Counted from the first letter of the stretch, positions 43,333 to 63,361 are shown. The stretch: DNA of 64,000 bases from Escherichia coli (GCF_965641715.1 NZ_OZ282453.1), one strand, 5' to 3'. Notes: generated from the sequence alone by a model not told the origin. A program made the numbers and translations.

Positions 43333-43363
43333 CGTGGATTACTCCGTTTTCAGCGGTATTTTG

Positions 43364-43723: not shown

Positions 43724-43892
43724 GTTCACCTCCGCAGGGAATGCGCCCGGCAAAGCTCAGTACATAATCCGGGGCAAGTCTTCGCCGCGCTGACCGCTCG
43801 TTATCTGCGGTGATCCTTAACATCACAGGACGGGCATTGCGTTGACTGCGGTTGATCGCCGCAAATAACCAGGTACACTTCTGTTTAGCCAT
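43716..43892 (-). CDS. Small basic protein (58 aa), first gene of the left operon
   Basis: ATG with AAGAGG Shine-Dalgarno 8 nt upstream; MAKQKCTWLFAAINRSQRNARPVMLRI...; not in the ORF track. Confidence 0.3.
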   Translation of the reverse strand: MAKQKCTWLFAAINRSQRNARPVMLRITADNERSARRRLAPDYVLSFAGRIPCGGEHA

Positions 43893-43983
43893 CTTCGTTA
43901 CCTCTTATAACGGTTGGTTAAATGCCCGATTTGTGTTCCCGCACAATCGGGCATTGCTTTTACAAGCGAACTATACTTACAAT

Positions 43984-44023
43984 GGTAATTACCATGTAGT
44001 CATCATATTCCAGGGTAATTACC
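43984..44023. promoter_or_regulatory. Two copies of the perfect 10-bp palindrome GGTAATTACC (43984-43993 and 44014-44023); candidate operators
   Basis: Read directly; between the divergent left operon and the RHH ORF. Confidence 0.4.
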
Positions 44024-44197
44024 ATGTCAACACCACAAGAGAAACGTTCCCCACCATTCCAAATGCGTCTTACCGACGATTTTAGGTTGCAACTCGAAAA
44101 AGAAATGCGCAAAGATGGAGATAGCGCGTTGGCAACTTGGATTAAAAGAATTTTACGTAAAGAACTACAATCACGCGGGATTGACCCTAAAGGTTAA
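44024..44197 (+). CDS. Ribbon-helix-helix (Arc/MetJ-like) candidate repressor, 57 aa
   Basis: MSTPQEKRSPPFQMRLTDDFRLQLEKEMRKDGDSALATWIKRILRKELQSRGIDPKG; beta-strand plus two helices pattern; not in the ORF track. Confidence 0.45.
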   Translation: MSTPQEKRSPPFQMRLTDDFRLQLEKEMRKDGDSALATWIKRILRKELQSRGIDPKG

Positions 44198-44229
44198 TCA
44201 GTTAAATATTACTAACTATCAATTAAGGC

Positions 44230-44520
44230 TTAGGGAGTAGGTGATAATCTATTCCCTTTATTAATTGCTCTTGCCTTATTTCTCATCCCCTCAAACTGTT
44301 GACCTGAGTTTTCTTCAAACCCATCTCGCCACTTATAATAATCAGCAGCGCGCCATCGGGACATCCGACCTATTTTTATAGGTTTTGGAAAGCGATTCAG
44401 AGAAATCAATCGATAAATCCATTTGTCACTTAATAAACAATCGGAAGTAATAAACTTCATATCGATCAGAGAATCCATTGAAGGTCGTTGCAAAGTAGTA
44501 TTATCATGTTTAGATAACAT
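44230..44520 (-). CDS. alpA: AlpA-family prophage regulatory protein
   Basis: Motif IYRLISLNRFPKPIKIGRMSRWRAADYYKW typical of AlpA; true start may be an internal Met. Confidence 0.65.
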   Translation of the reverse strand: MLSKHDNTTLQRPSMDSLIDMKFITSDCLLSDKWIYRLISLNRFPKPIKIGRMSRWRAADYYKWRDGFEENSGQQFEGMRNKARAINKGNRLSPTP

Positions 44521-44645
44521 TCATCATTCTCCGTTTATCTAAGTCTATTGGCTTCAACACGGAAAATTAAAACATAGGTTATAAATGAGAAAAATGTGAC
44601 TAATGAAAAAAATCCAAAATCATTAGTCACAATAATTGTTAACAT

Positions 44646-45470
44646 TTAGTTAAACTTAATGTTTTTCATGCAACTACGTAGCAAGCTAACAACAGTATCA
44701 TAGCTCAAAGGTGGTTCTCCGGTCTTAGGCCAGAACTCACTGGCATGTTGAAAAAGATAATCAGCTATCGCTGCTGGACTCTCTCTTCTTAGCCTCATAT
44801 CACGATGATAGAGCGAAATAATAGCCATGAGTATTTCAGTTCGAGGAACAGCATGTTTTTGTTTTTGCGCCTCAGATTGTGATTTATATTTATTGGCGTT
44901 TTTTATCCGTTTTTGTTCGCATAAGACTATATCAATGAATTTTTGAATCTGTACCTTTGTAATCCACAAAACCTCAAAAAGATAATAATTTTCTTTTTCA
45001 TCATAATTTACATAAAGAATTACCTTACAATTTATATTAGGCGTACCCGCCAGTAGAAAATGAATAGGCCAGGAATCCGGTTGCCCCTCATGCTTAACTA
45101 ACAGATCTTTATATTCATAATCAACAGCCCATAAACCGGATATAAAGCATCGAATAAAACCATTTTTATCAATTAAATTATTTTCATCAGGGATTCTTAT
45201 AGAGCTTAAGTCTGACAACATAATATTGCCATTTCTATCTCGTGGTAAATATTTCAGATTAGATAAGAACTCATCCAGTTGACCATCAATCTTCAAACCA
45301 CATGAAACATCATACTCATCATCATGGAATTCCATGCATAGCTCTACATCTCGTTCTCTGGCAAACCAGAGTATATCCTTTTCACTACAACCAATTTTTT
45401 CTGAAGCTTCATCCAACTGGTAGTAATCTCTGAGCAGAGAATCAGTATTATTAATTTTTAAAATATTCAT
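44646..45470 (-). CDS. Hypothetical protein (274 aa), AT-rich island cargo
   Basis: Long ORF; start overlaps the integrase stop by 4 bp; no motif recognised. Confidence 0.5.
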   Translation of the reverse strand: MNILKINNTDSLLRDYYQLDEASEKIGCSEKDILWFARERDVELCMEFHDDEYDVSCGLKIDGQLDEFLSNLKYLPRDRNGNIMLSDLSSIRIPDENNLIDKNGFIRCFISGLWAVDYEYKDLLVKHEGQPDSWPIHFLLAGTPNINCKVILYVNYDEKENYYLFEVLWITKVQIQKFIDIVLCEQKRIKNANKYKSQSEAQKQKHAVPRTEILMAIISLYHRDMRLRRESPAAIADYLFQHASEFWPKTGEPPLSYDTVVSLLRSCMKNIKFN

Positions 45471-46657
45471 TTATGAGTACCAATTAGCTCAGATAAATAA
45501 TTAGCATACCATTGCATCATTTCTCTTCTCCCTTCGAGATATTGGGCATGGTTATAAATTCCACGAATAGAGTTTTTGTCCGAATGAGCAAGCTGGGTTT
45601 CAATCCAAGCGCTGTTAAATCCTTTCTCATGTAGAATTGTACTCATCGTATGCCTGAAACCATGTCCCGTAACACGCCCTGCATATCCAATACGTTTAAA
45701 CACCTGATTGATGCTTGCTTCACTCATAAATTTGCTAGGATCGTTGCGTCCAGGGAACATCAGCGGGTAGTTCCCAGTTAGTTCTTTCAAACTTTTGAGA
45801 TGGGATAATGCTTGTTTTGGTAACGGGACAATATGGCTCCTACGCATTTTCATACGTTCTTTTGGGATCTCCCACACCGCATTATCAAAATCCACCTCTC
45901 GCCACTCACCTGCTCGTAGTTCTCCAGTTCGTAGACCTGTCAGGATAAGTAAATGCGCCCCCAACAATACAATTGGACTTCCTGAATAAGAATTAAGGGC
46001 ATTAAAGAACTCCGGTAGTTCGTTGGCTTTGAGGAATGGATAGTGGACTGCTTCATGTCCTTGCATCGCACTGGCAAGATCCGGTGCCGGATTGTAGATT
46101 GCCCTACCCGTTACGATGGCATAGCGAAAAACTTCACCGCATCGCTGACGGACTTTCTTCGCTTTCTCCATAGCGCCTCGAGCTTCTATCAACCTCAGAA
46201 CTTCAAGCAGTTCAAGGGGCTGAATATCAGCTATAGGTCTGTGCCCAATATGCGGAAAAATGTCTTTCTCAAATGCCTCAATGATGTCGGAAGCATAGCC
46301 CTCAGACCATTTGGATGATTTCATTTTGTGCCACTCTAACGCCACTTCTCTGAATGGGTTAAGTGTCTCAATCGCTGCGTTTAAAGCCTGCTTTTTGGCT
46401 TTTTTGACTTCGCCGGGATCTTCACCTGCTGCGAGTAGTTTCTTTGCGTCTTCTCGTTTTTGTCTGGCATCAGCAAGTGTGACTGTTGGATAAACACCAA
46501 AGGACAATCGTTTCTCTTTACCAGCAAAACGGTATTTCATACGCCAGTAACGCGAGCCATTAGGTTCGACCTGAAGGTATAGGCCACCTCCATCAAACAG
46601 CTTATAGCTCTTCTCTTTTCCTTTCGCAGCTTCAACCTTGCGGGCATTCAGCATCAT
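45467..46657 (-). CDS. int: Tyrosine integrase (P4-type), tRNA-adjacent
   Basis: N-terminal SYKLFDGGGLYLQVEPNGSRYWRMKYRF; C-terminal catalytic HxxR...Y (HGFRHT ... GIYNHAQYLEGR); ORF extends to 46726. Confidence 0.85.
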   Translation of the reverse strand: MMLNARKVEAAKGKEKSYKLFDGGGLYLQVEPNGSRYWRMKYRFAGKEKRLSFGVYPTVTLADARQKREDAKKLLAAGEDPGEVKKAKKQALNAAIETLNPFREVALEWHKMKSSKWSEGYASDIIEAFEKDIFPHIGHRPIADIQPLELLEVLRLIEARGAMEKAKKVRQRCGEVFRYAIVTGRAIYNPAPDLASAMQGHEAVHYPFLKANELPEFFNALNSYSGSPIVLLGAHLLILTGLRTGELRAGEWREVDFDNAVWEIPKERMKMRRSHIVPLPKQALSHLKSLKELTGNYPLMFPGRNDPSKFMSEASINQVFKRIGYAGRVTGHGFRHTMSTILHEKGFNSAWIETQLAHSDKNSIRGIYNHAQYLEGRREMMQWYANYLSELIGTHK

Positions 46658-46821
46658 TGGGGGCACATTTCCTAGACCGAACAGAACATGCCCCTGATTG
46701 TGCCCCCAACCGCGTGTTGATTTCAAGAGACAAGGGTTGACCTCAAACGTATGAAAACAACGTAATATATATGTTTTTAAATGATTTTGTTGATGTGGGT
46801 TGACTTGGGAAAACTAGGTGA

Positions 46822-46897
46822 TGGTGCCGATAATAGGAGTCGAACCTACGACCTTCGCATTACGAATGCGCTGCTCTACCAACTGAGCTATATCGGC
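46822..46897 (-). tRNA. thrW: tRNA-Thr (anticodon CGU)
   Basis: 76-nt cloverleaf GCCGATATAGCTCAGTTGGTAGAGCAGCGCATTCGTAATGCGAAGGTCGTAGGTTCGACTCCTATTATCGGCACCA on the minus strand; 3' end duplicated at attL. Confidence 0.9.
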
Positions 46898-47011
46898 CCT
46901 GAAAGGACATGTTCACGAACGTGAATCACGGTGGACAAGGGTAAAACTAACCGGGCGATGCGTCAATGGCCTTGTGAATCAAATGGCTACTTTTGCATCA
47001 CCCGGTTTTAT

Positions 47012-48265
47012 TTACGCACGAATGGTGTAATCACCAATGCCGATCCACTTGTAAGTGGTCAGTGCTTCCAGCCCCATTGGGCCACGCGCGTGGAGTTTTT
47101 GTGTGCTTACCGCCACTTCCGCACCCAGTCCAAACTGGCCGCCGTCGGTAAAACGCGTAGAGGCGTTAACGTAAACAGCGGACGAATCCACTTCGTTAAC
47201 AAAACGCTGGGCGTTGCGCATATCGCGGGTCAGGATCGCATCGGAGTGTTGTGTGCCGTGTTCACGAATATGGGCGATGGCATCGTCAAGATCGCTGACG
47301 ATTTTGACGTTCAAATCTAATGACAGAAACTCATCGTCATACTCTTCGGCTTTAACCGCCACCACCTTCGCGGGGCCTGCCTGCAACTGTGTCAGCGCAG
47401 CTGCATCTGCGTGTACTGTCACGCCGCTTTCCGCCATTTGTTTGCTTAATGCGGGCAGGAAGCTATCGGCGATGTTTTTATTCACCAGCAACGTTTCTAC
47501 CGTATTACATGTGCTCGGACGCTGAGTTTTCGCGTTGACGATCACTTTTAATGCTTCAGCGATCTCTGCACTTTCATCAACGTAAATATGGCATACGCCT
47601 ATACCACCTGTGATCACCGGGATCGTCGACTGTTCGCGGCACAGTTTATGCAAACCAGCCCCGCCGCGCGGGATCAGCATGTCGATGTATTTATCCATAC
47701 GCAGCATTTCACTGACCAGCGCACGGTCAGGATTATCAATCGCCTGCACGGCACCCGCCGGTAAGCCACAGGATTTCAGGGCGTCCTGAATCACCGCCAC
47801 CGTTGCAGCGTTAGTGCGACAGGTTTCTTTGCCACCGCGCAGGATCACCGCGTTACCTGTTTTCAGGCACAGCGAAGCGACATCAACCGTCACGTTCGGG
47901 CGCGCTTCATAAATCACGCCAATAACCCCCAGCGGTACGCGACGACGCTCAAGACGCAGGCCGCTGTCCAGTACGCCGCCATCGATTACCTGCCCCACCG
48001 GATCGGCGAGGTTGCACACCTGGCGCACATCATCGGCAATGCCTTTCAGCCGTGCGGGCGTCAGTGCCAGACGGTCAAGCATCGCTTCGCTAAGGCCATT
48101 GGCACGCGCGTCAGCAACATCCTGGGCGTTAGCGTTGAGGATGATTTCGCTTTGTGCTTCCAGTTCATCGGCGATTTTTTCCAGCACGCGATTTTTTTCG
48201 CGGCTGGAGAGTTGCGCTAATTTATACGAGGCTTGCTTCGCGGCAATGCCCATTTGTTCCAGCAT
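47012..48265 (-). CDS. proA: Gamma-glutamyl phosphate reductase
   Basis: 417 aa, full-length match to ProA by recollection. Confidence 0.95.
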
Positions 48266-48276
48266 CGGCCAGCTCC

Positions 48277-49380
48277 TTAACGGGTAATCATGTCATCACG
48301 GTGAACGGCAACCGGGCCGTATTCATATCCCAGTATTGCATCAATTTCTTGCGAGTGGTGTCCGGCAATACGGCGTAATGCATCGCTGTTGTAACGACTG
48401 ACGCCGTGGGCGATATCGCGACCTTCGAGGTTACAAATGCGGATGACTTCACCACGCGAGAAATTGCCAGTCACGCTTTTAATGCCTTTCGGCAACAGGG
48501 AGCTGCCGCGTTCAAGAATGGCGGCAGTTGCCCCTTCATCTACCGTGATTTCACCCGCCGGCGGCGCACCGAAAATCCAGCGTTTACGGTTTTCAAGCGG
48601 AGTCGCCTGGGCATGGAACAGCGTACCGACGGAAATGCCTTCCATCACATCACCAATGACGCCCGGCTTGCTGCCCGCGGCAATAATGGTGTCGATACCC
48701 GCACGGCAAGCCACGTCCGCGGCCTGCAATTTGGTACTCATGCCGCCAGTTCCGAGGCCTGAAACGCTGTCACCGGCAATCGCGCGCAGTGCGTCATCAA
48801 TGCCGTAAACATCTTTAATCAGTTCTGCCTGCGGATTGCTGCGCGGGTCAGCGGTATACAAACCTTTTTGATCGGTCAGCAGCAACAGTTTATCGGCACC
48901 CGCCAGAATCGCCGCCAGCGCAGAAAGGTTGTCGTTATCGCCGACTTTAATCTCTGCCGTAGCGACAGCATCGTTCTCATTGATTACCGGAACGATATTG
49001 TTATCGAGCAACGCACGCAGGGTGTCGCGGGCGTTCAGGAAGCGTTCACGGTCTTCCATATCAGCACGAGTCAGCAGCATTTGCCCGACGTGAATGCCAT
49101 AAATCGAAAACAGCTGTTCCCACAGTTGAATCAGTCGACTCTGCCCTACCGCCGCCAGCAGTTGTTTCGAGGCGATAGTCGCTGGCAGTTCCGGGTAACC
49201 CAGGTGCTCACGTCCGGCGGCGATCGCGCCCGACGTCACAATAACAATCCGATGCCCGGCGGCATGTAACTGCGCGCACTGGCGAACAAGTTCAACGATA
49301 TGGGCACGGTTCAGACGGCGCGATCCGCCTGTTAGCACACTGGTGCCGAGTTTTACCACCAGCGTCTGGCTGTCACTCAT
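48277..49380 (-). CDS. proB: Glutamate 5-kinase
   Basis: Start at [19 protein letters not shown] (367 aa); the ORF track extends 29 codons upstream. Confidence 0.95.
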
Positions 49381-49667
49381 GATTCTCTGCCATTCAATTT
49401 TAGGAAAAATGATATCAAACGAACGTTTTAGCAGGACTGTCGTCGGTTGCCAACCATCTGCGAGCAAAGCATGGTGTTTTGTTGCGCGGGATCAGCAAGC
49501 CTAGCGGCAGTTGTTTACGCTTTTATTACAGATTTAATAAATTACCACATTTTAAGAATATTATTAATCTGTAATATATCTTTAACAATCTCAGGTTAAA
49601 AACTTTCCTGTTTTCAACGGGACTCTCCCGCTGAATATTCGCGCGTTAATTAAAATCAGGAATGAAA

Positions 49668-50723
49668 ATGAAAAAGAGCACTCTGGCATTAGTGGTGATG
49701 GGCATTGTGGCATCTGCATCCGTACAGGCCGCAGAAATATATAACAAAGACGGTAATAAACTGGATGTCTATGGCAAAGTTAAAGCCATGCATTATATGA
49801 GTGATAACGACAGTAAAGATGGCGACCAGAGTTATATCCGTTTTGGTTTTAAAGGCGAAACACAAATTAACGATCAACTGACTGGTTATGGTCGTTGGGA
49901 AGCAGAGTTTGCCGGTAATAAAGCAGAGAGTGATACTGCACAGCAAAAAACGCGTCTCGCTTTTGCCGGGTTGAAATATAAAGATTTGGGTTCTTTCGAC
50001 TATGGCCGTAACCTGGGCGCGTTGTATGACGTGGAAGCCTGGACCGATATGTTCCCGGAATTTGGTGGCGACTCCTCGGCGCAGACCGACAACTTTATGA
50101 CCAAACGCGCCAGCGGTCTGGCGACGTATCGGAACACCGACTTCTTCGGCGTTATCGATGGCCTGAACTTAACCCTGCAATATCAAGGGAAAAACGAAAA
50201 CCGCGACGTTAAAAAGCAAAACGGCGATGGCTTCGGCACGTCATTGACATATGACTTTGGCGGCAGCGATTTCGCCATTAGTGGGGCCTATACCAACTCA
50301 GATCGCACCAACGAGCAGAACCTGCAAAGCCGTGGCACAGGCAAGCGTGCAGAAGCATGGGCTACAGGTCTGAAATACGATGCCAATAATATTTATCTGG
50401 CAACTTTTTATTCTGAAACACGCAAAATGACGCCAATAACTGGCGGCTTTGCCAATAAGACACAGAACTTTGAAGCGGTCGCTCAATACCAGTTTGACTT
50501 TGGTCTGCGTCCATCGCTGGGTTATGTCTTATCGAAAGGGAAAGATATTGAAGGTATCGGTGATGAAGATATGGTCAATTATATCGATGTCGGGGCTACA
50601 TATTATTTCAACAAAAATATGTCAGCGTTTGTTGATTATAAAATCAACCAACTGGATAGCGATAACAAATTGAATATTAATAATGATGATATTGTCGCGG
50701 TTGGCATGACCTATCAGTTTTAA
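49668..50723 (+). CDS. phoE: Outer-membrane phosphoporin
   Basis: 351 aa from [21 protein letters not shown]; porin C-terminus ...GMTYQF. Confidence 0.95.
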
Positions 50724-50761
50724 TGATTATTGCCGGATGTGATGCATCCGGCATATTTCAC

Positions 50762-51220
<459 letters not shown>

Positions 51221-52465
51221 TTAACACAAACGTTTTTCGATCCATTCTGTGATTTCCTGAAGACCTTTGTCAAAATTCCGATACACCGGGTTAAATGGGA
51301 TCTCTAATAATTTACCGTCAGCAGATGATGAGGTGATTAAGCGTGAGTCCTCTTCCGGGCTGAACGGATCGTTCTTCCAGTAGCCTGATAACATTGGCGT
51401 TGGGCAGCGACGTCCCAGCAATCCTTGCACTTTTAATGAATAGCGATTCAGCTCCACGCGCAACGCTTCGTCGGAAGCATCATGCATCCCCAAACGACTG
51501 GCCAGAACGTCAAGATACATTTCCGGCACCTGTTGCTGGCACTTAAAATCACTCAACAGGGTATGAACTACCGGACCAAGACAGGCAACCGCTTTCAGAC
51601 GCGGCGATTCAAGGTATGCCAGACGCACGGCAACGTTAGCGCCGAAACGGAAACCAAAGGCCGCGACGCGAGTGTGATCCACCCACGGTACGTTAGGCAG
51701 TGCCTTTAAGACGTGCTGATGCAACAGGCTGGAGTCCTGGGTGAGCTTCCATTTTGAAGAAAAGCCCACCGACGGCATATCAATAGTCAGCATCGCAATG
51801 CCGCGCGGCGCAAAATAACGTTCATACAGGCTGTAATAGTCCGTCTGCATCGCATCCAGACCACCACACATTAATACCGTCGGGAACGGGCCATCGCCTT
51901 TCGGCATATGCAAAAAGCCGGTGATGGGCGCACCGCCAGGTACGGTAAACTCCATCTGCCGCATCGTGCCCGGTAGACGCTGAGCGGCCTCTTCATAGGC
52001 GCGGTTTGACAAAGCCTGCGCTTGCTCGGCCAGGTCATCTCCTTTCAGATGAGGATAGGCGGCAATGTTGTACAACGTAGCCGCATGCAGCCAGTGACGA
52101 CCACTGAGTTGCGGATCTTCTTCCGCACAGGCTTTTTGTTGCCACACCATCGCCTGGGTGGCCCACTCATAAATCCAGTTGCCGCCACGGTAGCCAATCA
52201 CCGTATCGTATAAATCATCGTCGGTACGTTCGGCATCGCTCATCACAATACGTGCCTGGACGTCGAGGATTTCGCGTGGGTCAATGCCGCGCCAGATCCA
52301 CATCAGACGGTTAATCATGCGATACCAGTGAGGGATGGTTTTACCATCAAGGGCCGACTGCACAGGCGGTTGTGCGCCGTGATTAAAGCGGCGGACTAGC
52401 GTCGAGGTTTCAGGATGTTTAAAGCGGGGTTTGAACAGGGTTTCGCTCAGGTTTGCCTGTGTCAT
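51221..52465 (-). CDS. frsA: Fermentation/respiration switch esterase
   Basis: 414 aa; alpha/beta hydrolase. Confidence 0.9.
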
Positions 52466-52556
52466 GGATGCAGCCTCCAGAATACTTACTGGAAACTATT
52501 GTAACCTGCCTGAAGTTAAAAAGAACAACGCCCGGCAATGCCAGGCGTTGAAAAGA

Positions 52557-53015
52557 TTAGCGACCGGAGATTGGCGGGACGAATACGACGCCCATATCCC
52601 ACGGCTGTTCGATCCAGGTATCTTGCGGGATATCAACAACATAATCATCAACCAGCGGACGACCAGCCGGTTTTGCAAAGATGGTGACAAAGTGCGCTTT
52701 TGGATACATTTCACGAATCGCAACCGCAGTACCACCGGTATCCACCAGGTCATCAATAACGATGAAGCCTTCGCCATCGCCTTCTGCGCGTTTCAGCACT
52801 TTAAGCTCGCGCTGGTTGTCGTGATCGTAGCTGGAAATACAAACGGTATCGACATGACGAATACCCAGTTCACGCGCCAGTAACGCACCCGGTACCAGAC
52901 CGCCACGGCTTACGGCAATAATGCCTTTCCATTGTTCAGAAGGCATCAGTCGGCTTGCGAGTTTACGTGCATGGATCTGCAACATGTCCCAGGTGACGAT
53001 GTATTTTTCGCTCAT
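52557..53015 (-). CDS. gpt: Xanthine-guanine phosphoribosyltransferase
   Basis: 152 aa [20 protein letters not shown]...; PRTase motif [12 protein letters not shown]. Confidence 0.95.
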
Positions 53016-53275
53016 GTGAAGTGTCCCAGCCTGTTTATCTACGGCTTAAAAAGTGTTCGAGGGGAAAATAGGTTGCGCGAGATTATAGAGATCTGGCGCA
53101 CTAAAAACCAGTATTTCACATGAGTCCGCGTCTTTTTACGCACTGCCTCTCCCTGACGCGGGATAAAGTGGTATTCTCAAACATATCTCGCAAGCATGTC
53201 TTGTGTTGACAACATTTTCTGCTAACCCTGTGACCTGCAATACTGTTTTGCGGGTGATCGACAAGGAGACTTAAC

Positions 53276-54733
53276 GTGTCTGAACTGTCTCAATTATCTC
53301 CACAGCCGCTGTGGGATATTTTTGCCAAAATCTGTTCTATTCCTCACCCGTCCTATCATGAAGAGCAACTCGCTGAATACATTGTTGGTTGGGCAAAAGA
53401 GAAAGGTTTCCATGTCGAACGCGATCAGGTAGGTAATATCCTGATTCGTAAACCTGCTACAGCAGGTATGGAAAATCGTAAACCGGTCGTCTTGCAGGCC
53501 CACCTCGATATGGTGCCGCAGAAAAATAACGACACCGTGCATGACTTCACGAAAGATCCTATCCAGCCTTATATTGATGGCGAATGGGTTAAAGCGCGCG
53601 GCACCACGCTGGGTGCGGATAACGGCATTGGTATGGCCTCTGCACTGGCGGTTCTGGCTGACGAAAACGTGGTTCACGGTCCGCTGGAAGTGCTGCTGAC
53701 TATGACCGAAGAAGCCGGTATGGACGGTGCTTTTGGCTTACAGAGCAACTGGTTGCAGGCTGATATTCTGATTAACACCGACTCCGAAGAAGAAGGTGAA
53801 ATCTACATGGGTTGCGCGGGGGGTATCGACTTCACCTCCAACCTGCATTTAGATCGTGAAGCGGTTCCAGCTAGTTTTGAAACCTTCAAGTTAACCTTAA
53901 AAGGTCTGAAAGGCGGTCACTCCGGCGGTGAAATCCACGTTGGCCTCGGTAATGCCAACAAACTGCTGGTGCGCTTCCTGGCGGGTCATGCAGAAGAACT
54001 GGACCTGCGTCTTATCGATTTCAACGGCGGCACACTGCGTAACGCCATCCCGCGTGAAGCCTTTGCGACCATTGCTGTCGCAGCTGATAAAGTCGACGCC
54101 CTGAAATCTCTGGTGAATACCTATCAGGAGATCCTGAAAAACGAGCTGGCAGAGAAAGAGAAAAATCTGGCCTTGTTGCTGGACTCTGTAGCGAACGATA
54201 AAGCTGCCCTGATTGCGAAATCTCGCGATACCTTTATTCGTCTGCTGAACGCCACCCCGAACGGTGTGATCCGCAATTCCGACGTGGCAAAAGGTGTGGT
54301 CGAAACCTCCCTGAACGTCGGTGTGGTGACCATGACTGACAATAACGTAGAAATTCACTGCCTGATCCGTTCTCTGATCGACAGCGGTAAAGACTACGTG
54401 GTGAGCATGCTGGATTCGCTGGGTAAACTGGCTGGCGCGAAAACCGAAGCGAAAGGCGCATATCCTGGCTGGCAGCCGGACGCTAATTCTCCGGTGATGC
54501 ATCTGGTACGTGAAACCTATCAGCGTCTGTTCAACAAAACGCCGAACATCCAGATTATCCACGCGGGCCTGGAATGTGGTCTGTTCAAAAAACCGTATCC
54601 GGAAATGGACATGGTTTCTATCGGGCCAACAATCACCGGTCCACACTCTCCGGATGAGCAAGTTCACATCGAAAGCGTAGGTCATTACTGGACACTGCTG
54701 ACTGAACTGCTGAAAGAAATTCCGGCGAAGTAA
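53276..54733 (+). CDS. pepD: Cytosol nonspecific dipeptidase (aminoacyl-histidine dipeptidase)
   Basis: 485 aa; M20-family metallopeptidase. Confidence 0.95.
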   Translation: MSELSQLSPQPLWDIFAKICSIPHPSYHEEQLAEYIVGWAKEKGFHVERDQVGNILIRKPATAGMENRKPVVLQAHLDMVPQKNNDTVHDFTKDPIQPYIDGEWVKARGTTLGADNGIGMASALAVLADENVVHGPLEVLLTMTEEAGMDGAFGLQSNWLQADILINTDSEEEGEIYMGCAGGIDFTSNLHLDREAVPASFETFKLTLKGLKGGHSGGEIHVGLGNANKLLVRFLAGHAEELDLRLIDFNGGTLRNAIPREAFATIAVAADKVDALKSLVNTYQEILKNELAEKEKNLALLLDSVANDKAALIAKSRDTFIRLLNATPNGVIRNSDVAKGVVETSLNVGVVTMTDNNVEIHCLIRSLIDSGKDYVVSMLDSLGKLAGAKTEAKGAYPGWQPDANSPVMHLVRETYQRLFNKTPNIQIIHAGLECGLFKKPYPEMDMVSIGPTITGPHSPDEQVHIESVGHYWTLLTELLKEIPAK

Positions 54734-54789
54734 TTATTTGATTTGCTGCCGGATGGCGTTTAATCGCCTTCCGGCAGTTTCATCCTTCA

Positions 54790-55336
54790 TTATCCTTCGA
54801 TAAATGCCATCCCTGTAAACGTTCGTCGCGGGTTGCCACGTTCAATCTGGTGATGGAACATTCGCCGCTGCGATTTCAGCGCCGCGCTATTTTCCTGTTG
54901 CTGTTGCTCCAGCTTCCAGGCAATCAGCAATCGCGCCAGCCGTTTGTTAGCATGCTGGCTGCGTTCTGACTGAACCTTCACGCTAATCCCGGTTGCCAGA
55001 TGCGTGGCGCGTACCGCCGAGTCGGTTTTATTGACATGTTGACCGCCCGGCCCCGACGAACGCAGCGTGTCAGGATAACGCCCGGCTTCGGTTTCCAGCA
55101 CCGTTACCGCGACGTCTTGTCGGGTAAAAACGACCAACAGAGAAGAACGCTGCGCCAATCGGGTAGCCGCGTCCGGGGTGTAAATCTGGCATCCCCACTA
55201 CGCGCTGCATGTTGGGTAAATTTGCCGTGGTGTGTAATTGTTGGATCGCTAAACTCTCGATCCACAGGTCATCAGATGCGATGGTAAATACCGCATCGGA
55301 TAAGGGACGAATATATTTGCCCATGTACCATTCCAT
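54790..55336 (-). pseudogene. prfH: Remnant of an rtcB-like / prfH module: RtcB N-terminal fragment fused out of frame to the PrfH C-terminal part
   Basis: 55070-55336 encodes an RtcB-like N-terminus ([18 protein letters not shown]); 54790-55158 encodes the release-factor GGQ region ([10 protein letters not shown]); overlapping, frame-discordant ORFs. Confidence 0.55.
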
Positions 55337-55465
55337 TTATACTCGTCATACTTCAAGTTGCATGTACTGCGACTGCGTTCGTTCACCCCAGTCACTTACT
55401 TATGTAAGCTCCTGGGGATTCACTCGCTTGTCGCCTTCCTGCAACTCGAATTATTTAGAGTATAT
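55337..55465. repeat. ERIC (enterobacterial repetitive intergenic consensus) element
   Basis: Contains atgtaagctcctggggattcac and aagtaagtgactggggtgaacg (reverse strand), matching the ERIC core as I recall it; terminal inverted repeats. Confidence 0.7.
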
Positions 55466-55641
55466 AAATATAAAAATCAGGAAATGGCAGACGAATCCAG
55501 GGCAAGAAAAAAAGAATTAATCCTGGAAAGGTCTGCAAAGAGTCATTGATAAAGGATTTGTCATGATTTACCTCCTTGCAGTTTGTGGAATAAGAAAACG
55601 CGCACATACCAGGCGGGCGTTATTTTCATTGCAAGCTGGAT

Positions 55642-56094
55642 TTAATGTTGCGGTTTATATCGCATATAAAAATTAGTAAACCAAGCTCCACGGCATTCAA
55701 CGCGCTGCTGCTTAACTGTCTGAAAACCATAACGTTCAAAAAAGGGTTTTGCGGTTATGCTGGCGTCCACCGTAAGTTCGGATTCAGACTTAATCAAAGG
55801 TTTTAACAAAGCGCTGGCAACCCCACGGCGGGTGTATTCAGGGTCAACAAATAACATATCGATATAATGTTCAATGCGGGAAATAAAACCAACCGGTTGT
55901 GCATTAATGACTGCAACCCGCACTTGTGATTTCGCGAGTTTCTCCTTCCAGCGAGATTCGTCAATCTGCGCCCAGGCGGCAATTTGTTGTGGTGAATAAT
56001 GCTGACTGGCGGTCATCATAACCGCTCTAATGAAAATAGCGCATAGTTGCTGAAAATCGCCAGGCTGATAGTTTCTTATTTGTATGTTATTCAT
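55642..56094 (-). CDS. yafP: GNAT-family acetyltransferase
   Basis: 150 aa from MNNIQIRNYQPGDFQQL; the ORF track includes a 20-codon upstream extension. Confidence 0.85.
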   Translation of the reverse strand: MNNIQIRNYQPGDFQQLCAIFIRAVMMTASQHYSPQQIAAWAQIDESRWKEKLAKSQVRVAVINAQPVGFISRIEHYIDMLFVDPEYTRRGVASALLKPLIKSESELTVDASITAKPFFERYGFQTVKQQRVECRGAWFTNFYMRYKPQH

Positions 56095-56123
56095 AATGTA
56101 AGTTTTGTTTTGAATACCCGCAT
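56091..56123 (-). pseudogene. yafO: yafO toxin remnant: 10 codons (MRVFKTKLTL, stop) between yafN and yafP
   Basis: ATG 2 bp after the yafN stop encodes MRVFKTKL (as the K-12 YafO N-terminus, by recollection) then terminates; the ~130-codon body is absent. Confidence 0.5.
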
Positions 56124-56125
56124 CC

Positions 56126-56419
56126 TTATTCCTTAAAGTCATTGAAATCATCATCCGTCATATCATTAAGATATTGTTCAGCGCGGCGTGTAATTTCCTC
56201 TAATCTTGCAGCACTTGGACGGAAGCGCGCCTTTATGGGCTTTTTCTCCTCTTGTTCAGCAAGCATGTCCATTAACGCTTCGAATGCGCTGGCACTTAAG
56301 AGATATCCTGCGGGGCGATTATTAGAAAGAACCGCAACCGGTTGATCAATAAAGTATTTAGCTGGGTTTTTACGTAACTCAGTAATATTGACCGATTTTT
56401 CAGCGAGAATTCGATGCAT
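56126..56419 (-). CDS. yafN: Type II antitoxin YafN
   Basis: 97 aa MHRILAEKSVNITELRKNPAKYF... Confidence 0.85.
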   Translation of the reverse strand: MHRILAEKSVNITELRKNPAKYFIDQPVAVLSNNRPAGYLLSASAFEALMDMLAEQEEKKPIKARFRPSAARLEEITRRAEQYLNDMTDDDFNDFKE

Positions 56420-56470
56420 ACAGTGATCCCCTCATAATAATGCACACTAGAATAGACATAATAGTATACA

Positions 56471-57526
56471 TCATAATCCCAGCACCAGTTGTCTTTCCAT
56501 TTGAGGGTCAAGCAACGTCACATGCAGCCCCACCAGTCGCACACCGCGCCCACCGCGGCGTTCATCCCAGGTTTTACGCGCGGTGGCGATTAGATCAGCT
56601 TTATTCAGCCGCGGCCAGACGTGCTCCTGGGTGGTTTGCTGAAAATCGTCGAACTTTAATTTCACCCCCTGGCGAGCAATCAGTAAATCAGGTTTTACCT
56701 TTGCCAGACGGCGTTCAAGTTCCGGATACAGCCGCTCGATAATCGCTTCACATTCAGACCAGTGATGAATATCTTCCGCCATCGTGCGTTCCACGCCGAC
56801 GGATTTTCGTAACCGTTCGCTGTTAACATCGCGCTCGTCAATCCCCTGACTACGCTCCCACAAAATGCGGCCAAATTTGCCAAAGCGTTTAAGCAGAATC
56901 ACCAGATCACACTTTTGTACATCACCGCAGGTCCGCAGCCCCATCGCTTCCAGTTTTGCCGCCGAGACTTTGCCGACGCCGGGGATTTTTGCCAGCGGTA
57001 AGGTTTGCAGAAATGCCGGAACTTCTGCCGGAGTAATCACAAACTGGCCGTTGGGTTTATTCATGTCGGAGGCGATTTTGGCGAGAAACTTTACTGGTGC
57101 CACGCCCGCAGACGCCGTCAGTTGCAGCTCGCTGAAAATCGTCTGGCGGATTTCCTGGGCGATGAGGGTCGCAGAACCGTGGCAATGGACGCTGTCGGTG
57201 ACATCGAGATAAGCCTCATCCAGTGACAACGGCTCAATGCGCGAGGTGTAGCGCGAGAAGATTTCACGGATATGATTTGAGGCTTCTTTGTAGGCGTCAA
57301 AGCGCCCCGGAAGCAAGGTGAGATGTGGGCATAATTTGAGCGCCATCCCTGTCGGCATAGCGCTGCGTACGCCAAATTTACGCGCGGGATAATTGGCGGT
57401 GCTGATCACCCCCCGACGTTCGCGGCTGCCGCCAATAGCAATAGGGATATCGCGCAGGGCGGGATTGTCGCGCATCTCCACTGCGGCGAAAAAGCAGTCC
57501 ATATCCACATGAATGATTTTACGCAT
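56471..57526 (-). CDS. dinB: DNA polymerase IV (Y-family)
   Basis: 351 aa [22 protein letters not shown]... Confidence 0.95.
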
Positions 57527-57596
57527 TACTCACCTCTCAACACTGGTAAAGTATACAGTGATTTCAGGGTTTGAGAAATGCGTAAAGATTCAGCAT

Positions 57597-58340
57597 TTAG
57601 CGCGTTCGCTGCGAAAGCACCTGCTGCTTATCCAGCTTTTGCACCAGCGGCTGCACCACTTTATCCCCATGCTGACCAAAGTATTGATACAGCGTATCGG
57701 ACGCACTTTTGGTCAGCACCATAATCTCAATACGCCGATTGCCCGCGCTTTGCGGATTTTTGGCATCCAGCAGCATCTGGTCAGCCATTGCGCTTACCTG
57801 CATCACTTTATCTTCCGGCATTCCGGCCTCTTCCAGCACCCGACGAGCCGAAAGCGCGCGATCGCCCGAAAGGTTCCAGTTGTTGTAGATATTGTTTTTG
57901 TAGGCCATCGCATCGGTATGCCCGGTAATAATAATTTTGTTATCGAGCGAGTCGAACACTGGCGCGAGCTCCACCAGCAGCGTTTTAAAGAACGGCATAA
58001 TCTGCGCGCTGCCGCGTTCAAACATATTGCGGTTCTGGTCGTCTTTAATCAGCACGCGTAATCCCTGCGGGACAATCTCCATCTCCAGATTCGCTTCCAT
58101 ATGCGCATCACGGGCAATGGTGTTGATACTGGTTGCCAACTCGCCAAGCTCGGTGGCGGATTTCTTCTTCAGCAGCGCCGTTTTCTCATTCACATCACGC
58201 GCTTTTTTCTCCGTCTCTTCCGGCACCGCCACGGTGGCAGGTTTTGGCGGATGAGACGGGCTGATTTTATTTAACGGCGACAGCCCACCACCGTTAAAAA
58301 TCGACTGCCCGTGCAGCGCGGCGATAATGCTTTCACGCTC
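57597..58340 (-). pseudogene. mbhA: MotB-like (LafU/MbhA) fragment lacking N-terminal TM region; Flag-2 remnant
   Basis: C-terminal OmpA-like domain (IIITGHTDAMAY...NRRIEIMV); the N-terminal 50 codons of the ORF are antisense readthrough of the flhA-like sequence. Confidence 0.6.
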
Positions 58341-60066
58341 GGATTTACTGACGCTGTTGACAATCAACTTTATCGTCGTCACCAAAGGGGCCGAGCGTAT
58401 TTCCGAGGTTTCTGCCCGCTTTACCCTGGACGCGATGCCCGGCAAACAGATGGCGATTGACGCTGACCTTAACGCCGGGTTGATCAACCAGGCGCAGGCG
58501 CAAACCCGGCGTAAAGATGTCGCCAGCGAGGCCGATTTCTACGGCGCGATGGACGGGGCGTCGAAGTTTGTGCGCGGGGATGCCATCGCCGGGATGATGA
58601 TTCTGGCGATCAACCTGATCGGTGGTGTCTGTATCGGGATCTTCAAATACAACCTGAGCGCTGACGCTGCCTTCCAGCAATATGTGCTGATGACCATCGG
58701 CGACGGGCTGGTGGCGCAGATCCCTTCCCTGCTGCTCTCCACCGCGGCGGCGATTATCGTCACCCGCGTCAGCGACAACGGCGATATCGCCCATGACGTA
58801 CGCCACCAACTGCTGGCAAGCCCGTCGGTGCTCTACACCGCTACCGGAATTATGTTTGTGCTGGCGGTAGTGCCGGGGATGCCCCACCTGCCGTTTTTGC
58901 TGTTCAGCGCCCTGCTTGGCTTTACCGGCTGGCGGATGAGCAAACGCCCGCAGGCGGCGGAGGCGGAAGAGAAAAGCCTCGAAACGCTGACCCGTACCAT
59001 CACCGAAACCAGCGAGCAACAGGTCAGTTGGGAGACTATTCCGCTGATCGAGCCTATCAGTTTAAGCCTCGGCTACAAGCTGGTGGCGCTGGTGGACAAA
59101 GCCCAGGGCAACCCGCTCACCCAGCGTATTCGCGGCGTGCGACAGGTGATATCCGACGGCAACGGCGTGCTGCTGCCGGAGATCCGCATTCGGGAAAACT
59201 TCCGCCTTAAGCCCAGTCAGTACGCTATTTTCATCAACGGCATTAAGGCCGATGAAGCAGATATTCCGGCGGATAAACTGATGGCCCTGCCCTCCAGCGA
59301 AACCTACGGCGAGATAGACGGCGTGCTGGGGAACGACCCGGCGTACGGGATGCCGGTGACCTGGATCCAGCCCGCGCAGAAGGCGAAGGCACTAAATATG
59401 GGGTATCAGGTGATCGACAGCGCCAGCGTGATTGCCACCCATGTGAATAAGATTGTACGCAGCTATATTCCTGATTTGTTTAACTATGACGACATCACAC
59501 AGTTGCATAACCGTTTGTCGTCGATGGCACCGCGCCTGGCGGAGGATTTAAGCGCGGCGCTGAATTACAGCCAGTTGCTGAAAGTGTACCGCACACTACT
59601 GACCGAAGGCGTTTCCCTGCGCGACATCGTCACCATCGCCACCGTGCTGGTCGCCAGTAGCGCGGTGACCAAAGATCACATTCTGCTGGCGGCCGATGTG
59701 CGCCTGGCGCTGCGGCGCAGCATTACTCATCCGTTCGTTCGCAAACAGGAGCTGACGGTGTATACGCTGAATAATGAGCTGGAAAATCTGCTCACCAACG
59801 TAGTGAATCAGGCGCAACAGGGCGGCAAAGTGATGCTCGACAGCGTGCCGGTCGACCCGAATATGCTCAACCAGTTCCAGAGCACGATGCCGCAGGTGAA
59901 GGAGCAGATGAAAGCGGCGGGGAAAGATCCGGTGCTGCTGGTGCCGCCGCAGTTGCGTCCTTTGCTGGCGCGCTATGCAAGGTTGTTTGCGCCGGGGCTG
60001 CATGTGCTGTCGTATAACGAAGTGCCGGACGAGCTGGAGTTGAAGATTATGGGGGCCTTGAGTTGA
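58327..60066 (+). pseudogene. fhiA: FlhA-like (LfhA/FhiA) export-gate protein lacking ~130 N-terminal residues; Flag-2 remnant
   Basis: Similarity begins at TINFIVVTKGAERISEVSARFTLDAMPGKQM (FlhA ~residue 130); no N-terminal TM1-3; junction with mbhA near 58330-58350. Confidence 0.6.
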
Positions 60067-60096
60067 TTGAGGAGGCTATATAAGGGCCAGGACCGT

Positions 60097-60184
60097 CCCC
60101 TCGCCCCTTTGGGGAGAGGGTTAGGGTGAGGGGAAAGTGCGCGCTGAGCCCCTCACCCCGGCCCTCTCCCCAAAGGGGCGAGGG
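60097..60184. repeat. Imperfect palindromic element (~34-bp arms) between convergent fhiA and yafL
   Basis: cccctcgcccctttggggagagggttagggtgagggg versus cccctcaccccggccctctccccaaaggggcgaggg; read directly. Confidence 0.4.
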
Positions 60185-60227
60185 AGAAAATCGTGTACGA
60201 CTTTAGCTTTTTCGCGGTATTGCCGTC

Positions 60228-60977
60228 CTACAAAATCGTCTCTTCCGTCAAAATCCGCCGCGCGCCTAAAAAATGATCCTGCCAGAAAGGTTCAGCTAAC
60301 CGACTTACCCGAATGGTTTCCCCGGTGCGCGGTGACTCAATAAACTGACCGTCGCCCAGATACACCCCCATATGGTCGGCAATCTCGCGGCTGTGGATAT
60401 GGAAAAACAGCAAATCTCCCCGGCGCAGGTCGTTATTCGCCACAATCGTTGCCCGATGGTAGTGATACATCTCATTAGCCGTACGCGGGAGCTTCGCCTC
60501 GAGGATCTTGTTGTAGGCATAAAAAACCAACCCGCTACAGTCAAAGCCTTTATCAGGCCGCGTGCCGCCCCAGACGTAAGGCTTGCCAAGCTGCTGCTCC
60601 AGGCGGTGAATCGCCACTTCGGTGATGTTATGCAGATGGTCGCTGCTTAAAAAGTGGTTATTTTCCGCCAGCGCCTGCCAGCGTCTGTCACTCGCCTTGA
60701 GCGGCGCAGGAAACCATTCTGGATGCTGTTTTATCTGTTCGCGGTTGTGCTGGCGCAGCGCCCTTCTGCTTTCGGCATTGCCTTCCACAATATAGCTGGC
60801 CTGCTTTTTCAGATGGGTTTGGTACTGTTTTAATAAACGCGCACGGTTTTGCATCCGCTGGCGGGCGGCGTAGCTGAAAGAGATATGTGATGTGGTGGCG
60901 CAGGCAAATGAAGAAAACGGCAAGCAAAGCAACAGTAATCCCGACAACACAAAAGAGGGAATCGACGGCAAAGACAT
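60228..60977 (-). CDS. yafL: NlpC/P60-family lipoprotein peptidase
   Basis: 249 aa from MSLPSIPSF...; catalytic Cys context GFDCSGLVFYAY. Confidence 0.8.
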   Translation of the reverse strand: MSLPSIPSFVLSGLLLLCLPFSSFACATTSHISFSYAARQRMQNRARLLKQYQTHLKKQASYIVEGNAESRRALRQHNREQIKQHPEWFPAPLKASDRRWQALAENNHFLSSDHLHNITEVAIHRLEQQLGKPYVWGGTRPDKGFDCSGLVFYAYNKILEAKLPRTANEMYHYHRATIVANNDLRRGDLLFFHIHSREIADHMGVYLGDGQFIESPRTGETIRVSRLAEPFWQDHFLGARRILTEETIL

Positions 60978-61186
60978 TCTCAATAATGGCTGGTCATGCA
61001 TTGATGTTGCAGTGTATCCTGGCCCGTACCTGAACAAACTTAATAAACCATTATTATAAAATTAATAAATATATTTCAGTTTATTATGTAAAAACATCCG
61101 TTTATTAAATTACTCATGGATTGTCGCTGTTGCTCATTTGAGCTACAATTCAAGCTGAATAAATATACAGCACAGGAGATACCCCA

Positions 61187-61447
61187 ATGGCTGCTAACGC
61201 GTTTGTTCGCGCCCGAATCGATGAAGATCTGAAGAATCAGGCGGCGGACGTACTGGCCGGGATGGGGCTGACCATCTCTGACCTGGTTCGCATAACCCTC
61301 ACAAAGGTCGCGCGTGAAAAGGCATTGCCGTTTGATTTACGCGAGCCTAATCAATTAACCATTCAATCAATCAAAAACAGCGAAGCTGGCGTTGATGTTC
61401 ATAAGGCCAAAGACGCCGATGATTTATTTGATAAATTAGGAATTTAA
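61187..61447 (+). CDS. dinJ: Type II antitoxin DinJ
   Basis: 86 aa MAANAFVRARIDEDLKNQAADVLAGMGLTISD... Confidence 0.9.
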   Translation: MAANAFVRARIDEDLKNQAADVLAGMGLTISDLVRITLTKVAREKALPFDLREPNQLTIQSIKNSEAGVDVHKAKDADDLFDKLGI

Positions 61448-61449
61448 AT

Positions 61450-61727
61450 ATGATTCAAAGGGATATTGAATACTCGGACAATTTTCAAAGGATGTAAAAC
61501 TTGCACAAAAGCGTCATAAGGATATGAATAAATTGAAATATCTTATGACGCTTCTTATCAATAATACTTTACCGCTTCCAGCTGTTTATAAAGACCACCC
61601 GCTGCAAGGTTCATGGAAAGGTTATCGCGATGCTCATGTCGAACCGGACTGGCTCCTGATTTACAAACTTACCGATAAACTTTTACGATTTGAGAGAACT
61701 GGAACTCACGCGGCGCTCTTTGGGTAA
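61450..61727 (+). pseudogene. yafQ: yafQ toxin gene with an apparent -1 frameshift (split into a 15-codon N-terminal ORF and a C-terminal ORF from 61476)
   Basis: ATG at 61450 gives MIQRDIEYSDNFQRM then stop at 61495; the conserved remainder (GQFSKDVKLAQKRHKDMNKLKYL...) is in the +2 frame; consistent with loss of one G in the tcggga run near 61476. Confidence 0.55.
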
Positions 61728-61882
61728 AGCCCGCTTCCGATGAAATTTGTAAACCCTGCGCCGACAGGCTTGCGTAAAACTCTTTTGGTGATAATGTGAG
61801 CCTTCCAAATCCAGACTATTCCGATTTGGGATCCATTTTGCCGTCCTGGCGTGTGTAACCGTTTTATCAAGGAATAAGCAGT

Positions 61883-62623
61883 ATGCGTAAAATCGCATTA
61901 ATTCTTGCGATGTTGTTGATCCCGTGCGTTTCGTTTGCCGGTTTGCTGGGCAGCAGTAGCTCGACCACGCCAGTGAGCAAAGAGTATAAGCAGCAGTTGA
62001 TGGGATCCCCTGTCTACATCCAGATCTTCAAGGAAGAACGTACGCTCGATCTCTACGTCAAAATGGGCGAGCAATATCAACTGCTCGACAGCTATAAAAT
62101 CTGTAAATATTCCGGCGGCTTAGGGCCAAAACAGCGTCAGGGCGATTTCAAAAGCCCGGAAGGGTTTTATAGCGTCCAGCGTAATCAGTTAAAACCAGAC
62201 AGCCGTTACTACAAAGCGATTAATATTGGTTTCCCCAATGCCTATGACCGTGCGCATGGTTATGAAGGGAAATACCTGATGATCCACGGCGATTGTGTTT
62301 CCATCGGCTGCTACGCGATGACCAATCAGGGCATTGACGAGATTTTCCAGTTCGTTACTGGCGCACTGGTATTTGGTCAGCCGAGCGTGCAAGTGAGCAT
62401 TTACCCGTTCCGCATGACCGACGCTAATATGAAGCGCCACAAATATTCCAACTTTAAGGACTTCTGGGAGCAACTGAAGCCGGGTTACGACTACTTTGAG
62501 CAAACCCGTAAGCCACCGACCGTTTCTGTGGTCAATGGTCGTTACGTGGTCAGCAAGCCGTTAAGCCACGAAGTTGTGCAACCACAGCTGGCATCAAACT
62601 ACACGCTCCCCGAGGCAAAATAA
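61883..62623 (+). CDS. yafK: L,D-transpeptidase-like periplasmic protein
   Basis: 246 aa with signal peptide; YkuD-like HGDCVSIGC catalytic region. Confidence 0.85.
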
Positions 62624-63361
62624 GCGCCATTCGCCTGGCATAATTTTTTGCCAGGTTTCATTGCCCGTCAGCGGCTGTGTCGCAATCACCGTGACCACAT
62701 CATTCGGTGTGGTCTGCGAGCTGAAGTCGATTTCCACATCCTGATCCAGCAACGTTGCCACGCCAAACGGCGCGCGGCGGGTGATCCAGTGTAAATTAGT
62801 CGAGCAATACGCCATTACATAGCGCCCGTCCGAAAGCAGCATGTTGAAAACGCCCTTCGCCCGCAGTTCATCCGCCAGTGAGGCGATATATTTAAACACT
62901 GCCGCCATGTTGCCCGGCGTGCGCGGGTAACGCTGCGTTAATTTATGCAGCAGCCAGCAAAAGGCTTTTTCGCTGTCGGTTTCACCGACCGGGCGGAAGT
63001 TGCCGGTTTCCAGTGATTTGTAGCCCGTCAGTTGCCCGTTATGGGCATAAGTCCAGTTACGCCCCCATAACTCGCGGGTAAACGGGTGAGTATTTTCCAG
63101 CGCCACCTCGCCCCGATTAGCCTGGCGAATATGAGCCACCACCGAACAAGATTTTATCGGGTAGTCCTGGACCAGTTTGGCGATAGGTGAGTTAAAGCTG
63201 GGTTGCGGATCTTTAAATGTGCGACAGCCTTTACCTTCGTAAAAGGTAATGCCCCAGCCATCTTTATGTGGCCCGGTTCCACCACCACGCTGCACCAGAC
63301 CGGTGAAACTAAAGCAGATATCGGTAGGGACGTTGGCGCTCATCCCGAGCAATTCGCACAT
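62594..63361 (-). CDS. yafJ: Class II glutamine amidotransferase-like protein
   Basis: Start at [10 protein letters not shown] (N-terminal Cys nucleophile), 255 aa. Confidence 0.85.

Follow-up and report, generated by a model that had tools for sequence, protein, structure and literature searches.

Positions 57597 to 60066 of a 64,000-nucleotide stretch of Escherichia coli DNA (GCF_965641715.1, NZ_OZ282453.1; the whole stretch is referred to below as the window) hold the remains of two flagellar genes joined head to head, which we identify with high confidence as the E. coli deletion scar of the Flag-2 flagellar gene cluster, in the same allele as the lfhA'/lafU' pair of strain K-12 (formerly fhiA/mbhA). 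The scar itself is already known and is an ordinary feature of K-12. What in our judgment merits dedicated follow-up is the identity of its junction across genera, together with the lack of decay in the two remnants on either side. Below we map the junction, follow it into other enterobacteria, and weigh how it may have arisen and spread.

Remnants and deletion junction

The open reading frames (ORFs) of the locus and the parts into which they resolve, as given by the ORF list, by profile matches and by alignment to intact Flag-2 loci, are as follows:

57597 to 58487, minus strand: MotB-like ORF, 296 codons (ORF list)
58327 to 60066, plus strand: FlhA-like ORF, 579 codons (ORF list)
57597 to 58365, minus strand: lafU' remnant, with its stop codon at 57597 to 57599, then LafU residues 53 to 307 (family matches, alignment)
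58366 to 60066, plus strand: lfhA' remnant, LfhA residues 132 to 697 and stop codon (profiles, ungapped alignment from lfhA nt 391)
58363 to 58365, no strand: deletion junction, a 3-bp microhomology (ATC) common to both parental sites (three-way alignment)
58366 to 58487, minus strand: probable chance 5' extension of the lafU' ORF, running antisense through lfhA', 41 codons from a TTG at 58487
58327 to 58362, plus strand: probable chance 5' extension of the lfhA' ORF, running antisense through lafU', an ATG plus 11 codons, MLSRSDLLTLLT

A preliminary description of this locus, made from the sequence, had read it as truncated MotB-like and FlhA-like genes placed head to head; the two ORFs are real and lie where it put them, overlapping by 161 nt, and the likeness to MotB and FlhA holds up in profile searches. 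The minus-strand ORF scores 477.9 bits against the NCBIfam LafU equivalog NF005273 (cut-off 383), with its residues 41–287 covering profile positions 42–297, and its product also contains the Pfam OmpA domain. For the plus-strand ORF, the Pfam FHIPEP match (E = 3e-189) is limited to profile positions 99–656 of 657, and TIGR01398 (FlhA) is matched over positions 114–677 of 678 with 594.6 bits, falling under the cut-off of 772.1 because the protein is truncated. Both ORFs are therefore 3' fragments of flagellar genes.

The same description had proposed alignment to an intact Flag-2 locus, and we mapped the breakpoints in this way against three intact E. coli loci (strains 873.10, 33F4 and ET350), which bore out the reading of two truncated genes. 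Both flanks are colinear with the intact loci, the left flank of the window with the 3' part of lafU and dinB, and the right flank with the 3' part of lfhA and yafL. The ungapped match to 873.10 extends on the lafU side up to 58365 (96.9% match over lafU') and on the lfhA side from 58363 onward, and at the shared trinucleotide ATC antisense lafU nt 156–159 are joined to lfhA nt 391–393. With a slash marking the break, the parental sites read GCTGTTGACAATC/CACAGC (antisense lafU) and CCTGATGATCATC/AACTTT (lfhA); the microhomology sits in an imperfect direct repeat, CTGNTGANNATC, in which 9 of 12 positions match. A deletion junction had been anticipated near 58330–58350, and while its existence and rough place were right, the true site at 58363–58365 lies 13–35 bp further to the right. 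Other details of the preliminary description fare similarly: FlhA homology was said to begin at about residue 130 and begins at LfhA residue 131 (Ile131 falls within the ATC), after 12 codons antisense to lafU (58327–58362); the antisense start of the MotB-like ORF is present and does read through lfhA, but is 41 codons long and not about 50; and the transmembrane N-terminus of the MotB-like product is indeed missing. Full-length genes read from alternative starts are ruled out, as the missing 5' parts are absent from the window.

Relative to the three intact strains, the missing interior measures 35,320, 36,887 and 37,354 bp and comprises about 40 genes, from lafT to lfhB. The deletion has removed LafU residues 1–52, including the sole hydrophobic segment of the protein (residues 35–58 by hydropathy, with Asp39), as well as LfhA residues 1–130, corresponding to transmembrane helices (TM) 1 to 3 and most of TM4. 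Retained are the plug region, linker and OmpA-like peptidoglycan-binding domain of LafU, and the FHIPEP loop, TM5–8 and cytoplasmic domain of LfhA (as judged from its hydropathy profile). Both 5' ends are gone, along with any cluster-internal promoter, and the long ORFs that cross the junction are probably chance antisense read-through. The ATG that opens the lfhA' ORF is ATA in Kluyvera, and so is not conserved; on the other strand, the Prokaryotic Genome Annotation Pipeline (PGAP) starts its 261-aa LafU coding sequence at a GTG at 58380–58382, with an equivalent coding sequence in strain GF43 and five other strains.

In E. coli and Atlantibacter alike, a palindrome with 8-bp arms, GACGCTGT-N9-ACAGCGTC, has the left breakpoint in its loop (a position with a probability of about 0.005 by chance, on a rough estimate), and the right breakpoint lies 3 nt past a GATC (Dam site) inside a 12-bp palindrome, TGATGATCATCA. 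These palindromes are seen in the intact lafU and lfhA genes (locus L003 at about 12985–13020 and locus L002 at about 19990–20020, with Atlantibacter represented by loci L107 and L105), and may be taken as a structural hint to the mechanism of deletion.

An assembly artefact was considered and rejected, given that the region is found in the same arrangement, in one contiguous place, in 4072 of 5426 complete E. coli genomes. Of the same genomes, 5383 contain the lfhA 3' part, so that about one quarter carry lfhA in another configuration; those of the latter that we opened contain an intact Flag-2 cluster.

One junction in several genera

We gathered homologues through a protein search with LfhA', and the truncated forms recovered (562–598 aa, 69–92% identity) all begin with antisense-lafU sequence, followed by I-N-F-(I/V)-V-V-T-K-G. 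The head-to-head pair is present in Atlantibacter subterranea, at locus L100, in a metagenome lineage (L102), in Enterobacter sp. Ap-916 (L104), and in Kluyvera ascorbata, Citrobacter gillenii and the type strain of Escherichia albertii. In at least eight lineages (E. coli, E. albertii, Citrobacter, Kluyvera, Atlantibacter, a Cedecea-like strain and two others), the junction is at identical codons, with LfhA' protein identities of 69–100% across the eight. The bases next to it vary at synonymous sites (GACAATC/AACTTT, GACGATT/AACTTC, TAGAATT/AACTTC and CATAATT/AACTTC). Among the best 120 matches, every truncated LfhA that reaches the breakpoint has this same junction, and none has a junction at a different position. 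A contig scan with the generic FlhA motif DAMPGKQM yielded four relevant loci out of 80 listed (two intact Citrobacter loci, E. albertii and Aeromonas). A yafL-like gene is likewise the neighbour of lfhA in Citrobacter, Kluyvera, Atlantibacter and locus L100.

For E. coli and Atlantibacter, in which an intact gene of the same species is available for comparison, the identity of the remnants to this gene is about 99% and extends as far as the junction. The Atlantibacter scar equals intact lafU of its own species at −69 to −2 relative to the junction and intact lfhA at −1 to +112, and over their full lengths the two remnants agree with the intact genes at 828 of 835 and 1685 of 1701 positions; by comparison, LafU of E. 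coli and Atlantibacter are only about 66% identical. In four cases the LfhA' of a scar is 97–99% identical to the intact LfhA of what appears to be the same lineage. The type strain of E. albertii (NBRC 107761; locus L021, 2831–5398) has junction DNA identical to that of E. coli: the 105 bp surrounding the junction match perfectly, where the rest diverges by about 10%. Its lfhA' ends prematurely, with a stop at codon 335, and insertions are present at the 3' end of lafU'.

Within E. coli, the junction is identical in all 13 scar-bearing sequences that were aligned, K-12 included, and scar and intact alleles interleave. Sampling for the allele comparisons is small, with 16 E. coli alleles and a single trio of intact and scar alleles outside Escherichia. 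K-12 lfhA' equals the intact lfhA of 873.10 over all 1701 nt, and the lfhA sequences of PapRG (scar) and 33F4 (intact) differ at 7 nt. From the junction rightward K-12 and 873.10 are 99.92% identical over 5071 bp, compared with 97.8% to the left, and they share variants from +8 onward. Three of the four possible gametes are observed at sites −70 and +8 among the scar alleles, and around the junction nucleotide diversity dips no further than it does in the intact alleles.

The lfhA' allele of the window (58366–60066) is at most 97.1% identical to that of any of the 5383 complete E. coli genomes, although the window flanks are 99.1% identical to strain LR-64-2, and a 7.7-kb segment (55327–63066) is 100% identical to assembly GCA_910705265.1. 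An origin outside E. coli, at first suggested by a best identity of about 96%, is rejected on the strength of these flanks and this segment, and of public database entries that name the exact proteins as E. coli. The exact 579-aa lfhA' product is recorded in 86 blocks of assemblies, and alleles coding for the identical LfhA' protein differ from the window at 52–65 of 1701 nt. Pairwise synonymous divergence between E. coli lfhA alleles is 0.10–0.24, which seems high for a single species.

Origin of the scar

In the account that we favour, one deletion of about 35–37 kb at the ATC made the scar allele, and scar and intact alleles draw on one pool of variation; the variation now seen in the remnants would have arisen in intact genes, and their semblance of purifying selection would reflect how short a time, in evolutionary terms, they have been pseudogenes. 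That the pseudogenes are young in this sense is something that we infer.

Several observations weigh against this account. Among eight scar alleles that were not picked for having the same protein, the ratio of nonsynonymous to synonymous polymorphism (pN/pS) is 0.026, and among three intact alleles it is 0.036. Third codon positions account for 185 of the 209 segregating sites in lfhA', and on the scar branches of Atlantibacter there are 12 synonymous and no nonsynonymous changes. Over the 2.5 kb, none of the 13 scar alleles of E. coli contains a stop or an indel; both remnants are open in all 13 of these as well as in six of seven scars from other lineages, E. albertii being the exception. 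Low pN/pS and open remnants are the look of functional genes. Finally, a microhomology of 3 bp offers an ordinary deletion across 35 kb a poor substrate. The private changes of scar alleles number 10 nonsynonymous and 89 synonymous, and two shorter E. coli LfhA' clusters (501 aa and 416 aa) are mixtures of "partial" contig-end products and thus weak evidence of decay.

Two versions of the history may be set against these observations, and we weight them about alike. The first, to which we would give slightly less than an even chance, holds that a single ancient deletion (or a few) has been inherited and exchanged by homologous recombination, with its flanks continually converted by intact alleles up to the boundary of heterology. 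Common descent is the simplest explanation of a base-identical junction; E. coli recombines freely, and the occurrence of the scar on what we take to be F' plasmids of K-12 offers a route of transfer. The 105 bp shared by E. coli and E. albertii in otherwise diverged sequence, and the three gametes out of four at −70 and +8, fit the same history. On the other hand, conversion tracts would have to end no more than 7 bp (in K-12) or 69 bp from the junction, and both states would have to persist or be re-transferred across genera at 20–30% DNA divergence. An ancient deletion also predicts that sequence near the junction should either be decayed or form a core haplotype specific to scars, and neither is seen.

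The second version, which we regard as a serious contender though short of probable, is that of recurrent precise excision by a site- or structure-specific mechanism, each scar allele being a fresh copy of the local intact allele. This accounts for all of the observed patterns without special pleading: junction codons are the same in eight lineages despite their differing synonymous bases, the Atlantibacter scar follows the intact lafU and lfhA of its own species up to the junction, the four scar LfhA' proteins closely match apparently same-lineage intact LfhA, and K-12 resembles 873.10 more closely to the right of the junction than to the left. It likewise fits the absence of a diversity trough beyond that of intact alleles, of relaxed constraint and of indels, as well as the position of the left breakpoint inside a palindrome loop. 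Homologous exchange across genera, by comparison, is implausible because LafU of E. coli and Atlantibacter share so little identity. Against recurrent excision stand the lack of a mechanism (the microhomology is just 2–3 bp) and the small sampling. In addition, loci L102 and L104 do not share the sequence of the left site, and thus there is no common recognition sequence. A recombinase gene in or beside the element would be expected of a site-specific excisable island, and none is annotated in the three intact clusters; the gene rayT, which adjoins lfhA, does so in some E. coli strains only. The reciprocal junction of an excised circle would read CTGATGATCAT(C/T)CACAGCGTCAT, and a search of metagenome contigs with CTGATGATCATYCACAGCGTCAT gave no match, which is a weak negative, assembled contigs being a poor place for circles.

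We put forward only tentatively the stronger proposal that Flag-2 loss is a recurrent, base-precise excision that took place independently in Escherichia, Citrobacter, Kluyvera, Atlantibacter, the Cedecea-like strain and other enterobacteria. It is possible, to a similarly guarded degree, that the breaks in such events would always fall between LafU codons 52/53 and LfhA codons 130/131.

A third explanation, in which LfhA', LafU' or both are expressed as truncated proteins and kept by purifying selection (for example, with the C-terminal ring of FlhA modulating the primary flagellar export apparatus), appears very improbable. It would account for ORFs that stay open across genera, for the low pN/pS and the purely synonymous Atlantibacter changes, and for the annotation of LafU' by PGAP as an ordinary 261-aa protein; a promoter-like hexamer pair is also present at 58301–58328 on the plus strand. 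However, both natural promoters have been deleted, and the consensus scan for promoters and terminators performs no better than chance (4 found against 1.7 ± 1.3 expected). With no transmembrane helix and no signal peptide, LafU' cannot bring its peptidoglycan-binding domain to the periplasm. The membrane anchor of a functional MotB/LafU stator, a transmembrane helix with the proton-binding Asp (within residues 1–52, with Asp39), is deleted, and there is no match to the MotB_plug domain PF13677, which is absent from the truncated LafU forms; similarly, of the eight N-terminal helices of a functional FlhA/SctV export gate, TM1–3 and most of TM4 are missing. Genera differ in the start codon of lfhA', and there are copies with disruptions in the type strain of E. 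albertii and in a form named Shigella dysenteriae (505 aa, found on 43 contigs). The apparent constraint is equally explained by identity with intact genes of the same species, and the density of rare variants is raised, not lowered. Distinct protein variants number 6260 over 261 aa for LafU', compared with 6388 over 351 aa for DinB, 6407 over 417 aa for ProA and 2599 over 246 aa for YafK, making LafU' about 1.3–2.3 times denser per residue than the neighbouring functional genes, although variant density from cluster sizes is a crude proxy, confounded by the genera that fall within a 90% cluster. On sequence grounds, then, a function for the remnants is unlikely, and the LafU' and LfhA' products would be unable to work.

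The scar in the window is of little weight in itself, serving as a useful marker of Flag-2 loss. A junction that is conserved to the codon across genera, flanks that track the local intact genes, and unrelaxed constraint are nevertheless hard to fit with a single ancient accident. If excision is in fact recurrent and precise, bacteria would have a new means of losing an organelle locus of 36 kb that is both costly and immunogenic. Behind it would have to stand either a site- or structure-specific mechanism of deletion that has so far escaped notice, or a switch between presence and absence in which the remnants act as landing pads. Recurrent excision would also explain why these "pseudogenes" look undecayed, and would warn against taking a pseudogene with a low ratio of nonsynonymous to synonymous substitution rates (dN/dS) as evidence of function.

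Neighbouring genes and known Flag-2 loci

The features immediately flanking the scar in the window are as follows:

56471 to 57526, minus strand: dinB (DNA polymerase IV), left neighbour (ORF list, annotations)
57527 to 57596, minus strand: lafU'-dinB intergenic region, with two promoter-like matches facing dinB (consensus scan only)
60098 to 60184, no strand: inverted repeat with 36-nt arms (92% complementary) and a 15-nt spacer, between the lfhA' stop codon and yafL
60228 to 60977, minus strand: yafL (NlpC/P60 peptidase), right neighbour (ORF list, annotations)

The inverted repeat occupies the usual spot of the transposase gene rayT, associated with repetitive extragenic palindromes (REP), in K-12, 873.10 and others; the window has no rayT. 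Elsewhere in the neighbourhood, the dinB-yafN-yafO-yafP operon has lost its toxin gene yafO (55642–56419), and yafN (56126–56419) abuts yafP; 373 nt of K-12 sequence are absent here, and the alignment pieces on either side overlap by 6 nt. The same yafO-less state is present in strains GF43 and L005, and L006–L010 have neither yafN nor yafO. At 61187–61727, dinJ is intact (86 aa), and the yafQ toxin ORF has 67 aa as opposed to 92 aa in K-12; the 5' end of yafQ appears to be disrupted, and no yafQ is called in the identical locus L005. Short overlapping ORFs at 54790–55336 correspond to fragments of prfH and rtcB that carry a pseudogene annotation (ykfJ/prfH) in K-12 and other strains. Further away, an integrase gene (45467–46726) and a TOPRIM/DUF927 gene (39999–42671) adjoin proA in the segment 39999–46726. 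We interpret this segment as an island at the thrW tRNA gene, the site of the CP4-6 prophage in K-12. Window positions 40000–57500 are covered to 80% or more in one place by just 40 complete E. coli genomes. The scar also occurs, at about 96% identity to the window, on K-12 plasmid records of 214–242 kb (e.g., NZ_CP014273.1 and NZ_CP014271.1) that are presumably F-prime plasmids; some other "plasmid" records with the scar, of 4.8–4.9 Mb, are mislabelled chromosomes.

The nearest known counterpart is the K-12 pair of pseudogenes lfhA (b0229, formerly fhiA) and lafU (b0230, formerly mbhA), which has the same composition, orientation and neighbours (dinB and yafL). The K-12 junction is base-identical to that of the window, GTTGACAATC/AACTTTAT, and over the 64 nt around it the two differ only by a C/T site at +9 (window 58374), the site counted as +8 in the comparison of alleles above. 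Over the whole of lfhA', 97 of 1701 nt differ between K-12 and the window, almost all of them synonymously, and rayT and yafO are present in K-12 and absent from the window. The K-12 annotation places the boundary about 10 bp further to the left (window 58352/58354) than our mismatch-based mapping; BLAST similarity to lfhA fades there, within the imperfect repeat.

The intact Flag-2 clusters of 873.10, 33F4 and ET350 occupy the same chromosomal site, with flanks colinear up to the breakpoints. Their order, as seen in 873.10, is dinB, lafU (307 aa), motA ... flhB, flhA (697 aa), rayT, yafL. Where Flag-2 is present, the motor operon ends with lafU at the left end of the cluster and the export-apparatus operon ends with lfhA at the right end, both genes being transcribed outward from the cluster; strains 042 and W are the literature examples of intact E. 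coli Flag-2.

Deletion of Flag-2 in E. coli and Shigella is attributed to Ren et al. 2005 in those passages of De Maayer et al. 2020 and Archer et al. 2011 that we draw on. Identity of the junction across genera and the lack of decay were not found stated in the parts of the literature covered here. The passages of De Maayer et al. 2020 (PMC6993521) that we cite contain no statement that the junction lies at the same codon in every genus and no analysis of constraint on the remnants, both of which the present comparison supplies. These passages do report an en bloc lfhA-lafU deletion in 531 Enterobacterales strains, and Flag-2-negative E. albertii has been described as carrying a truncated Flag-2 locus of about 2.5 kb with truncated flhA and lafU (Carter et al. 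2024, PMC11420993). As far as those passages describe it, the deletion of De Maayer et al. is of the same class as the scar in the window, a class that we find also in Citrobacter, Kluyvera, Atlantibacter and other lineages.

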